A stretch of DNA of 64,000 bases, taken from positions 1,494,618 to 1,558,617 of the forward strand of contig CP181263.1 of assembly GCA_047834405.1 (NCBI GenBank), read 5' to 3'. The translations under genes were made by a program, and so were the position numbers. The stretch is from Eubacteriales bacterium. Its GTDB lineage: Bacteria; Bacillota; Clostridia; Oscillospirales; Acutalibacteraceae. Positions 2,821-5,583 of the stretch are shown here, piece by piece (the stretch's first letter is position 1; each line of letters begins with the position of its first letter). The notes below the pieces were generated by a model that worked only from the letters and a program-made list of their open reading frames with translations, had not been told where the DNA came from and searched no databases.

Positions 2821-4101
2821 TTACGATAATGCCTGGTTAAGGTCATAAAGCAAATCGTCGATGTGCTCGGTGCCGATGGAAAGGCGGATGGTGTTTGGTT
2901 TAATACCGGACTGAAGCAGTTCGCTTTCCGTCATCTGGGAGTGCGTGGTGCTCGCCGGATGGATGACCAGCGATTTAACGTCGGCCACATTGGCAAGCAG
3001 GGAGAAAATCTGGAGCCGGTCAATAAAATGCTTCGCTTCCTGTGCGCCGCCCTTAATCTCGAAAGTAAAGATCGAACCGGCGCCGTTCGGGAAATATTTC
3101 CGATACAGGGTATGGTACGGGCTGTCGGGCAGGGACGGATGGTTCACGCGTTCCACCCTCGGATGCTTCGAGAGAAAGTCAACGACCTTTAAAGCGTTTT
3201 CCACGTGCCGCTCAACGCGGAGGGAGAGCGTTTCAAGCCCCTGCAGGAGCAGGAAGGAATTGAACGGGCTGATCGTCGCCCCGGTGTCCCTCAGCAGGAT
3301 TACGCGGATGCGCGTTACGAACGCCGCGGCTCCAACGTCCTTGGTAAAGCGGATTCCGTGGTAGCTGGGGTCCGGCTCGCTCAGCCACGGGAATTTTCCG
3401 GAAGCCTCCCAGTCGAATTTCCCGGAGTCCACGATTACGCCGCCCAGGGACGTGCCGTGCCCGCCGATGAATTTCGTTGCCGAATGCACCACGATATCCG
3501 CGCCATGCTCAATGGGGCGGAGAAGATACGGGGTTGCGAAGGTATTGTCCACAATCAGCGGGATGCTGTGCTTGTGCGCGACGGCGGCAACCGCGTCCAT
3601 ATCCACAAGGCTGGAATTCGGGTTGCCGAGTGTCTCGATAAAAACCGCCTTTGTGTTTGGGCGTATGGCGTTTTCAAAACTGTTTTCCTTGTCAGCGTCA
3701 ACAAAGGTCGTGTGGATTCCGAAAGCTGCAAGCGTATGCTCCAGCAAATTATATGTACCGCCGTAGATGGTGTTTGCGGAAACGATATGGTCACCCGCGT
3801 GTGCTAAGTTCTGAATGGCATAGGTAATGGCCGAAGCCCCCGAAGCGGTTGCAAGGGCGGCGACGCCGCCTTCCAGCGCGGCTACACGCTGCTCGAATAC
3901 GTCCGAGGTGGGGTTCATCAGCCTGCTGTAAACGTTGCCCGTCTCGGCTAAGCCAAAGCGGTTGGCGGCCTGCGCGCAATCCTTGAATACGTAAGAGGTG
4001 GTCTGGTAAATCGGTACGGCCCTTGCGTCCGTCGCCGGATCGGGCTTTTCCTGCCCCGCATGTACCTGTAAGGTTTCAAATTGATATTTTCTGCCGTTCA
4101 T
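2821..4101 (-). CDS. metY: O-acetylhomoserine aminocarboxypropyltransferase (OAH/OAS sulfhydrylase)
   Basis: Motifs [32 protein letters not shown]-lysine motif [11 protein letters not shown] and [21 protein letters not shown]. Confidence 0.93.
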
Positions 4102-4128
4102 AATAACAAAGCTCCTTCTGCATGATTT

Positions 4129-4224
4129 TTATTGATTAAAACAACAAGAGGAGCCGCACATTCGTTCATGCAGAAAATTACGGAGTAACATCCGGCCGTG
4201 GTTTATTGCTTTCGCTTGATTCAT
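4129..4224 (-). CDS. Putative leader peptide of metY (31 aa: MNQAKAINHGRMLLRNFLHERMCGSSCCFNQ)
   Basis: Hand-translated. Strong RBS (GGAGGAG). Ends 27 nt before the metY ATG and has a Met-Cys-x3-Cys-Cys cluster near its 3' end. Confidence 0.7.
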   Translation of the reverse strand: MNQAKAINHGRMLLRNFLHERMCGSSCCFNQ

Positions 4225-4280
4225 AGGACTCCTCCTTTAACATTATAATTCATATAAAAATAGTAATGTTTATTGCTGCT

Positions 4281-4309
4281 ATATTACTACTTTACAAGGG
4301 TGATGTCAA
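4281..4309 (-). promoter_or_regulatory. sigA promoter for leader peptide-metY
   Basis: TTGACA-N17-TAATAT on the minus strand. Confidence 0.75.
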
Positions 4310-4318
4310 GTAGAATTT

Positions 4319-4352
4319 AAAAACTCCCGCGACAGTTTGTCGCGGGAGTTTT
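4319..4352 (-). terminator. Terminator after rRNA methyltransferase gene
   Basis: Perfect inverted repeat AAAAACTCCCGCGACA/TGTCGCGGGAGTTTTT. Confidence 0.85.
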
Positions 4353-5583
4353 TTATACGATTTGGAAGATATAAAATTTCAGATAGCTTGTTTCCGGCAC
4401 GTTCCACAGGATGGGGTGGTCGGGGGCCTGCTGGCGGGCTTCGATCTGTTTCAGCGATACCTGCGCGTCAAACGCCGCGCTTCGGAGCATGCTGCGGAAA
4501 AGCTCGTCGGTCATAAAGTGGGAACAGGAGCAGGTTGCCAGATATCCTCCGCGCGGGAGCACCTTCATTGCGCGCAGATTGATTTCTTTGTAGCCCTTTA
4601 TCGCGTGCTCAACAGTATGGCGGGACTTGGTAAAAGCGGGAGGATCCAATATGATGAAATCGTAACCGTCCTTTGCGCCGCAGGGCAGTTCCGGAAGGAG
4701 GTCGAATACATTTGCGGTTTGAAAGGTTATTTTTTCCTGAAGGCCGTTCCGCTCTGCGTTTTTCTGCGCCATGGCGATGGCGTCTCCGGAGATATCCACG
4801 GCGTGGACGCGTTCGGCGCCGCCTTTTGCCGCGTTCAGCGCGAAGGAACCGGTGTGGGTAAAGCAGTCCAGGACTTTTTTCCCGCGGCTGAGCTGCGCGA
4901 CCGCTTTGCGGTTGTATTTCTGGTCGAGGAAAAAACCGGTTTTCTGCCCGTTTTCAAAGTCCACGCTGTATTCGATTCCGTTTTCAAGAATCGTTGTTTC
5001 TGTGGATTCCGGCTGCGGCAATCCGGGGATCGGATAAAAGCCTTTGTTTTGCTCCATGCCTTCCAGTTCGCGGATCGTAACATCGTTTCGCTCGTAAACG
5101 CCGTCGATGGCCTGCCCGTCTTCCGCAAGGATTTTGTAAAGCAGCGGAAAGAGAATCGGCTTCAGCTTTTCCATTCCAAGGGAAAGCGTCTGTGTTACCA
5201 GAATGTTGTTGAAACGATCCACCGTAAGCCCGGGAAATTGATCCGCTTCACCGAAAATTATGCGGCAGCAGGACAAATCGTTCCCCATAACCGTTTTGCG
5301 GTAGTTCCAGGCGTACCGCAGGCGGCGCTCGAAAAAGGCTTCGTCGAAAACATCGTTCGCGTTTCGGGAAAGCAGGCGAATCCAGGATTTTGGAATGGTC
5401 GTTAATGAATCCTGTGCCCAGGTATTTTTCCCGCATATTGAATACATCAATGAGTTCGCCGTTCTGATATGCGCCCTCGATTTTTAAAATTTCGGTATTA
5501 TAGACCCATGGATGGCCGGCCAGAATGCTGCTTTCCGCTTTCCGGGTCAAAATGGCTTTCGGATAATTTCTTATTTGTTTCAT
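4353..5583 (-). pseudogene. RlmI/RlmL-like class I SAM-dependent rRNA methyltransferase, frameshifted (+1 near 5382-5386)
   Basis: The N-terminal PUA part (GHPWVYNTEI, ORF 5248-5583) and the C-terminal part (GEADQFPGLTVDRF, GQKTGFFLDQ, ILDPPAF, ORF 4353-5450) join into one gene if one base is removed at DHSKI|RIRLL. Could be a sequencing error. Confidence 0.8.

Follow-up and report, generated by a model that had tools for sequence, protein, structure and literature searches.

We propose that a short leader open reading frame (ORF) upstream of metY, the gene for O-acetylhomoserine sulfhydrylase, probably acts as a ribosome-mediated translational attenuator of the ermC kind that senses methionine, and also cysteine. 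The leader lies in a genome of the Acutalibacteraceae (Eubacteriales bacterium, assembly GCA_047834405.1), within a stretch of 64,000 nucleotides of contig CP181263.1 (positions 1,494,618 to 1,558,617), hereafter the window. Unless otherwise indicated, coordinates are those of the window, and all elements of the metY leader region are on its minus strand. An original prediction, made from the sequence alone, had put forward a translated Met/Cys leader in which a stalled ribosome masks a segment complementary to the metY Shine-Dalgarno (SD) sequence. Our comparison of genomes and the modelling of RNA folding support this idea. Moreover, the leader is most likely a diverged member of a widespread leader-peptide family of gut and rumen Clostridia, as judged from the sequences compared. 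The key conserved feature of these sequences is an invariant, rare CGA codon directly before an AUG codon, which the original prediction had overlooked.

The metY leader and its conservation in the genus

The regulated gene, metY (2821-4101), encodes a protein of 426 residues that matches TIGR01326 with 666.6 bits (cut-off, 495.1). The leader ORF, MNQAKAINHGRMLLRNFLHERMCGSSCCFNQ, extends from 4224 to 4129 and comprises 31 codons plus UAA; it was recognised from the ORF list and from its homologues in the genus. As originally described, it has an SD sequence of its own, GGAGGAG (4235-4229), and its stop codon (UAA, 4131-4129) lies 27 nt before the metY start (ATG, 4101-4099). Besides the start, the peptide has Met at positions 12 and 22 and Cys at positions 23, 27 and 28, with no run of either residue. 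The proposed sensing or pause site is CGA-AUG-UGC (Arg21-Met22-Cys23; 4156-4164), picked out by the invariance of its codons among leaders. On either side of this site lies a segment that could pair with the ribosome-binding site (RBS) region of metY, UCAUGCAGAAGGAGC (4111-4125), whose SD sequence is GAAGGAG (4118-4112). The upstream anti-SD arm, UUUUCUGCAUGA (4166-4177), spans leader codons 17-20, has 4125-4114 as its partner and stands out by complementarity and by conservation in the genus. The downstream anti-SD arm, GGCUCCUCU (4147-4155), emerged from pairing in the folding ensemble. The two complementarities noted at the outset are exact: GCUCCU (4154-4149), within the downstream arm, matches AGGAGC (4116-4111), and UUCUGCAUGA (4175-4166) is a perfect 10-nt complement of UCAUGCAGAA (4125-4116). 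The latter stem grows to 12 bp when two G.U pairs are admitted (4177-4166 with 4125-4114), with a duplex energy of -17.3 kcal/mol. In addition, the leader SD can itself pair with the downstream arm (duplex, -16.6 kcal/mol).

The alignment of regions upstream of metY, proposed as a check together with folding, revealed conservation of the ORF and of its Arg-Met-Cys codons, within the genus as well as in a much wider family. A leader with the motif [FS]L[HY][EDK]-R-M-C precedes metY in 15 of 20 species-representative genomes of the genus, and GGAGGAG(C/U)C is kept before its start. The nearest named relative, Caproiciproducens sp. R1 (88% identity in MetY), carries the leader MNTKSHSFHKLNRPFFLYDRMCTSYCCNRKSIL. 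Leader DNA is about 70% identical between the window and the other genus members. The best partner of the RBS in these leaders is the 15 nt directly 5' of CGA, consisting of CUGCAUG plus a pyrimidine anti-SD, with energies of -14 to -20 kcal/mol. The 10-nt stem of the original prediction is conserved in the genus, and one pair of this upstream-arm stem varies among C-G, U.G and U-A, a compensatory change. Downstream of Arg-Met-Cys, C-UCC is kept in 11 of 15 leaders with a varying encoded residue (G, A, C or T), and a non-coding box, CAUGCAGAAGGAG, is kept at the metY RBS in 11 of the 15 members. At one locus of the genus (L236, genome G476) ACG replaces ATG at the leader start and GGAGGAG is intact; this may be a decaying leader or one with a non-canonical start.

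No second copy of the leader was found elsewhere in the genome that contains the window. A match to CGAATGTGT at genome position 573346 was discarded, as it falls, out of frame, within the coding region of a NUDIX hydrolase. The surrounding stretch, TTCTACCCGCGAATGTGT (C1:573338-573355, minus strand), is kept in four genus genomes and mimics the leader core (..NFYPRMC-stop), again within the NUDIX coding sequence and in another frame.

A wider family of CGA-AUG leaders

A short upstream ORF (uORF) with R-M-C is present at about 16 of the 80 closest metY loci of other species; all of them use CGA-ATG-TGY for these residues, and many of the peptides read ...LRxN[FY]RNGRMC... When species-representative genomes were scanned with the pattern N[FY]RNG-CGA-ATG-TGY, at least 120 matches were obtained, with about 4 expected by chance according to our estimate. 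Among the matches listed, nearly all are uORFs of 15-35 codons (median, 23), and about 85% sit 20-130 nt before a metY orthologue. The remaining matches lie before other genes, most of which have a link to methionine; these encode MetQ/NlpA lipoproteins, URO-D-like methyltransferases (in Treponema), an SsuA-like binding protein, a LanC-like protein and a DUF7010 protein. The family consensus is M..I.F.MLRHNFRNGRMC, of about 23 codons, and MLRHNFRNGRMCRCK represents the canonical type. A second, complementary scan was directed at leaders in which Met is followed by a residue other than Cys, and it returned 43 matches, of which about 35 were genuine (RMR.., RMQ.., RMT.., RML..); these precede metY, metQ or metN-like genes, the metN call being based on N-terminal sequence only. 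Cys thus follows CGA-AUG in at least three quarters of cases and, since leaders without it exist, the universal core is CGA-AUG.

Of the attributes of this family, the window leader has an SD of its own, the CGA-AUG-UGY core (here CGA-AUG-UGC) and metY 27 nt downstream. Its peptide, L-L-R-N-F-L-H-E-R-M-C, can be set against L-R-x-N-[FY]-R-N-G-R-M with Asn and Phe in register (positions -6 and -5) and with R-N-G replaced by L-H-E. Forms intermediate between the window type and the canonical peptide occur at other loci.

The URO-D-like methyltransferase genes of Treponema that follow such leaders (L098, L143, L162, L179), as well as the LanC-like and DUF7010 genes (L192 and L105, respectively), may have a part in methionine or sulfur metabolism that has so far escaped notice.

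RNA folding and a model for the control of metY

The transcript of the window was folded from about 4274 to 4060, and the accessibility of the metY SD (4118-4112) was calculated over the ensemble. In free mRNA the SD is unpaired with a probability of 0.17, and its partners are 4153-4147, with a probability of about 0.99; this pairing includes the GCUCCU of the original prediction. A translating ribosome was then represented as an unpaired stretch around the codon in the peptidyl (P) site, using four footprint sizes from -12..+11 to -17..+15. SD accessibility is 0.17-0.21 with the P site at codons 1-12, rises to about 0.6 from codon 13, peaks at about 0.63-0.68 on CGA, AUG or UGC (also on GGC), and is back to 0.21 from the UCC/UCU codons onward, a profile that is stable for all four footprint sizes. 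The closure from UCC/UCU onward reflects renewed pairing of the SD with the upstream arm, UUCUGCAUGA, which the advancing ribosome has by then uncovered. Hence, in the model, the two anti-SD arms would flank Arg-Met-Cys like a clamp, and a ribosome held there would cover both. In the genus, the modelled RBS opens for P-site codons -11 to +1 and is closed after +2. The original prediction had expected stalling at any of Met22, Cys23, Cys27 and Cys28 to free the metY RBS. In the model this holds for Met22 and Cys23; with the ribosome at Cys27 or Cys28 the upstream arm re-pairs and SD accessibility stays at 0.21.

On this basis, the following sequence of events can be envisaged. The metY mRNA would begin about 50 nt before the 31-codon leader ORF, and the leader would be translated. 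In ribosome-free mRNA the metY SD would be sequestered by either the downstream arm, GGCUCCUCU, or the upstream arm, UUUUCUGCAUGA, which flank CGA-AUG-UGC. When charged tRNA-Met, tRNA-Cys or both are scarce, the ribosome would pause with CGA or AUG in the P site, and its footprint would cover both anti-SD segments, leaving the metY SD accessible for the synthesis of MetY. Under good supply the ribosome would proceed, the upstream arm would re-pair with the SD behind it, and metY would be off.

Several observations weigh against this scheme. Compared with classical attenuators, one Met codon makes an unusually small sensor, and the window leader has lost most of the NFRNG motif, which makes a role of the nascent chain uncertain in this copy. 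Forcing the 10-bp stem costs 7 kcal/mol relative to the minimum free energy (MFE) structure. Of 1000 dinucleotide shuffles of the leader (176 nt), 31 also contain a perfect stem of at least 10 bp, so that the stem alone is only modestly significant. The fold of the whole leader is not unusually stable (z = -1.25), and the predicted structure varies with the amount of 3' context: with a short context the MFE structure differed and accessibility was ambiguous, and extension into metY resolved both. In addition, the modelled SD is open for P-site codons 13 to 24, beyond Arg-Met-Cys, and termination at the leader stop codon, which is 3 nt away from the 3' arm, would likewise cause a brief opening of the RBS. 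Finally, covariation in the genus amounts essentially to one base pair.

Two of these figures, the occurrence of such stems in 3% of shuffles and the z-score of only -1.25, are what could be said for a chance ORF with chance complementarity in an AT-rich 5' untranslated region (UTR) that has no function. Given how often shuffled sequences yield the stem, the case rests on the comparison with other genomes. There, the ORF, its codons and both arms are kept across the genus despite a leader DNA identity of about 70%, and the leader belongs to a family of at least 120 matches. As far as sequence comparison goes, conservation in 15 of 20 genus genomes, the compensatory change and the CGA-AUG-UGY core together exceed chance, and the chance explanation is effectively refuted.

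Pairing between leader and RBS across the family

In the canonical family the anti-RBS arm begins at the Cys codon and extends for about 18 nt through the tail and the stop codon. Its partners are the metY SD, the spacer, the AUG and the second codon. One example is the pairing of UGCCGUUGUAAGUAA with GGUACUUACAAUG, and other members carry different, matching pairs. Native arm-RBS duplexes have an energy of -11.3 kcal/mol, as opposed to -8.8 kcal/mol when RBSs are swapped between loci (Wilcoxon p = 1e-5), and an upstream control region has no such native-over-swapped advantage. In the ribosome model, accessibility of the family RBSs increases by 0.11-0.13 only once the P site reaches CGA. Since the register of the helices differs between family members, RNAalifold found no consensus when 86 of them were pseudo-aligned in a fixed register.

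We found an intrinsic terminator in the spacer between leader and gene in 2 of 90 family members, which indicates that the output is mainly translational. In these two (L172 and L177), a strong terminator, ACUCCCCGAAG...CUUUGGGGAGU followed by a U-run (-18 kcal/mol), lies between leader and metY, and would represent a transcriptional output platform on the same sensor peptide. Altogether, the sequences and the modelled structures suggest one sensor core with differing output structures across the family.

Selection on the peptide and the rare CGA codon

Codon usage was analysed in 112 canonical leaders, for which we assessed the columns outside the search pattern. Arg at position -8 is present in 108 of 111 leaders and is encoded by AGA (41), CGG (20), CGC (14), CGT (13), AGG (13) or CGA (7). 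Leu at position -9 is found in 88 of 112 leaders with five or more codons, and at Arg(-4) and Gly(-2) every synonymous codon is in use. The retention of Arg, Leu and Gly through synonymous codons points to selection on the peptide in the wider family.

A markedly different picture holds for the Arg codon immediately before Met. Its invariance was judged only on leaders that had been sampled without that codon constraint, and it is CGA in 17 metY-anchored loci, in 15 genus genomes and in 4 of 4 genuine matches of a 401-genome class sample. The fifth match of that sample (L204), of the AGA type, lies inside purD and was set aside as a chance match. CGA is the rarest Arg codon in the genome of the window, at 5.6% of Arg codons. 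The tRNA-Arg set of this genome comprises ACG, CCG, CCU and UCU anticodons and lacks tRNA-Arg(UCG); CGA is therefore read by inosine, through I:A wobble. In yeast, an I:A pair at CGA in the P site distorts the mRNA and leaves the aminoacyl (A) site incompetent for decoding, and more tRNA partly rescues the defect (10.1101/755652). By analogy, we infer that this decoding effect carries over to bacteria. If so, CGA would probably slow decoding of the next codon and would make a single Met codon a sensitive gauge.

A further constraint may act on the nucleotides themselves. In about 25-30% of canonical members the leader SD and spacer (GGAGGCACAUUC) show complementarity to the CGAAUGUGCC codons (L082, L083, L095, L096, L099, L110, L120, L125 and L127 are among them). 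Because the helix is clear in only this fraction, it is no sufficient explanation of CGA invariance; it may add a nucleotide-level constraint in the members that have it. For these members the pairing model suggests that ribosome-free mRNA would close the leader RBS as well as the metY RBS, and that pioneer co-transcriptional translation would decide the outcome.

Selection on the peptide raises the alternative of a ligand-sensing arrest peptide, in which nascent chain and ribosome would bind methionine, S-adenosylmethionine (SAM), homocysteine or O-acetylhomoserine and arrest at Arg-Met-Cys, in the manner of TnaC, SpeFL or plant CGS1. About 11 residues up to Met-Cys are kept as amino acids with synonymous codons, as is typical of arrest peptides and unneeded for codon starvation; conservation stops at the Met/Cys position, and the position of the stop codon is variable. 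This mechanism is nevertheless unlikely here. In the folding model a pause turns metY on, which gives methionine or SAM as end products the wrong sign and leaves a shortage signal or a precursor only, and the extra Cys codons of metY leaders (see below) fit codon sensing. Moreover, the clade of the window has lost NFRNG and kept CGA-AUG-UGC, which indicates that the codons, and not the peptide, are the universal core.

Coming back to codon sensing, we tentatively suggest, as something possible rather than probable, that CGA-AUG constitutes a new type of single-codon gauge of aminoacyl-tRNA. With CGA in the P site, the ribosome would accept Met-tRNA, and then Cys-tRNA, poorly, with the nascent LRxNFRNGR contributing in most members. 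The outputs would be a helix on SD and start codon, the two-arm clamp or occasionally a terminator, making the device a ribosome-based counterpart of the S-box for the methionine genes of Clostridia in gut and rumen.

Should the peptide instead act as a free product, it would be a functional Cys-containing micropeptide (a MetY partner, a metal or redox peptide, or a precursor of a ribosomally synthesized and post-translationally modified peptide) without any cis-regulation. Peptide-level selection in the family, the Cys-rich tails and the one member before a LanC-like gene go in this direction. We consider it very improbable, as the same core precedes unrelated MetY, MetQ, MetN and URO-D-like proteins that have only methionine metabolism in common, tail length ranges from 0 to 24 residues, and the pairing with the downstream RBS co-varies. 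Furthermore, no modifying or export genes are nearby, and Pfam and NCBIfam searches with four leader peptides gave no match.

The signal and other methionine control

Returning to the attenuator, methionine is suggested as the primary signal by the set of genes under these leaders (metY, metQ and metN) and by the invariance of the AUG. Cysteine is likely a secondary input that matters for metY. Cys accounts for 20% of the residues in leader tails. Extra Cys codons are present in 60 of 88 metY-linked leaders and in 1 of 8 MetQ-linked leaders (Fisher p = 0.003), a comparison to be read with the caveats that the leaders are phylogenetically non-independent and that some UGU codons also pair with ACA-AUG. 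The analysis thus documents the sequence features and their conservation, selection on the peptide in the wider family, the association with methionine genes and the logic of the modelled folds; from there we infer in vivo translation of the leader, pausing at the Arg-Met-Cys codons and the identity of the amino acid that is sensed.

The original prediction had seen no SAM riboswitch or T-box at the leader, and an Rfam search of 3900-4500 agrees: it gave no SAM, T-box or other family, and RF00162 and RF00230 had no match there even at E<=10. The single S-box of this genome (SAM-I, 81.9 bits, C1:1718049-1718145, outside the window) precedes metK, which places metY outside SAM control and implies separate circuits. 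Among 40 metY loci examined, only 3 have an S-box or a T-box.

The metY transcription unit

Upstream of the leader lies an RlmI-like ribosomal RNA methyltransferase gene (5450-4353, minus strand; protein identity search). At its 3' end, a bidirectional intrinsic terminator, AAAAACUCCCGCGACAAACUGUCGCGGGAGUUUUU, can be read from the sequence (4318-4351, both strands), and this predicted terminator makes metY a transcription unit of its own. It also accounts for the sub-threshold Rfam matches to His, Thr and Leu leaders on both strands; the His- and Thr-leader signals (36-37 bits; cut-offs, 49 and 55) were rejected as spurious. Such terminator-derived matches are a pitfall for the automated annotation of leader RNAs. 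A promoter scan placed a sigma-70-type promoter at 4281-4309 (minus strand), with TTGACA (-35, 4309-4304), a 17-nt spacer and TAATAT (-10, 4286-4281), which corresponds to 10 of 12 consensus matches. Transcription is predicted to start near 4274, about 50 nt 5' of the leader ORF. Caproiciproducens sp. R1 has a matching gene order, terminator and TTGACA, followed by a -10 box. Between the leader ORF (4129) and metY (4101), a gap of 27 nt, there is no terminator-like site.

The 5' UTR contains a hairpin, AACAUUA-N18-UAAUGUU (4239-4270), between the predicted start and the leader SD, that appears in every fold. Genus relatives have AUAUUAC...GUAAUAU at this position, which looks like covariation. 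The hairpin may stabilise the 5' end or serve as the operator of a protein. Short DNA matches to it in other genomes were dismissed as AT-rich chance matches.

These elements bear on a further explanation, in which the leader is translated and is not a sensor. Its role would be constitutive, for example in keeping the metY RBS open as a standby or helicase ORF or in mRNA stability, and any control by methionine or cysteine would be exerted by a protein or small RNA acting in trans on the 5' hairpin or on the CAUGCAGAAGGAG box. A ribosome that terminates at the leader stop codon is 3 nt away from the 3' arm and necessarily opens the RBS. The conserved hairpin adjoins the promoter, and the pairing of the leader RBS with the CGAAUGUGCC codons in about a quarter of members suggests further control at the RNA level. 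Such a leader would, however, leave unexplained why a rare CGA followed by AUG is invariant in hundreds of species, why the leaders are restricted to methionine genes, why Cys is enriched specifically before metY and why both anti-SD arms are placed around exactly CGA-AUG-UGC. For these reasons we give this explanation little credence.

Relation to known systems

Methionine genes of Bacillota are, in the textbook view, controlled by S-box riboswitches, T-boxes or transcription factors. The leader family covers the same regulon (metY, metQ/metN and methionine-synthase-like genes) from the same position in the 5' UTR as the S-box and the Met T-box, and would thus be their functional analogue. 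In contrast to them, it has no aptamer and no tRNA-binding RNA (no Rfam match), and sensing would fall to the translating ribosome.

In the classical attenuators trpL, hisL, pheL, thrL, leuL and ilvL, the ribosome senses charged tRNA on tandem codon runs and controls the choice between terminator and antiterminator. Common to these and to the metY leader is the use of the ribosome as a charged-tRNA sensor on a short ORF that contains codons for the end product. The metY leader differs in having one Met and one to three Cys codons and no terminator, and its output would be translation initiation. The lack of both a terminator and a codon run sets it apart from this class of transcription attenuators, for which the literature that we searched yielded no Met- or Cys-specific member.

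In leaders of the ermC, cat and cmlA type, a stalled ribosome frees an SD held in a hairpin, with no terminator involved. The metY leader resembles them in that, according to our model, the SD is sequestered and opened by a ribosome at a defined leader codon. In ermC-type leaders the inducer is a ribosome-bound antibiotic acting with a specific nascent peptide, and the SD is released by a relay of four hairpin segments, whereas the metY leader would presumably respond to an amino-acid shortage, uses two anti-SD arms and has no resistance gene downstream.

Mycobacterial polycysteine leaderless small ORFs (sORFs), which make up the 'Cys ribulon' of Canestrari et al., offer a precedent in which a pausing ribosome unmasks the RBS of a downstream gene (10.1101/834739). 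Both systems would involve a short uORF, a sulfur amino acid sensed by pausing, translational control and several loci with one sensor. The sORFs of the Cys ribulon are leaderless and poly-Cys, lack a conserved peptide and serve cysteine genes in Actinobacteria. The metY leader of the window, in turn, is preceded by an SD and by a 5' UTR predicted to be about 50 nt long and contains no Cys tract; its family combines a single CGA-AUG, usually followed by UGY, with a conserved 11-residue peptide and with genes of methionine synthesis and uptake in Clostridia.

With the inhibitory CGA pairs of yeast (Letzring/Grayhack; Tesina et al., 10.1101/755652) the leaders would share the reading of CGA by I:A wobble, poor decoding in the A site and rescue by tRNA. 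The yeast effect concerns eukaryotic ribosomes and is a defect that triggers quality control; the bacterial CGA-AUG would, by analogy, be a regulatory device.

The mechanistic class, in which a stall unmasks an RBS, is known, and the leader family itself is apparently undescribed. Our literature search returned no paper with the leader motif or with a methionine leader peptide before metY, nor any report of a bacterial leader peptide through which ribosomes sense methionine, and our search of Pfam, NCBIfam and Rfam found no entry for it. In many abundant Clostridia of the gut and rumen, the family appears to fill the role of ribosome-based methionine sensing for metY and metNIQ. If this is true, it would account for the regulation of about one fifth of the close metY homologues that have no known riboswitch, and would add unannotated functional small ORFs to these genomes. 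The leaders would also be a testable bacterial case of the sensitisation of a single sensing codon by a codon pair or by the nascent chain, and could provide a compact part responsive to methionine and cysteine for the engineering of anaerobes.

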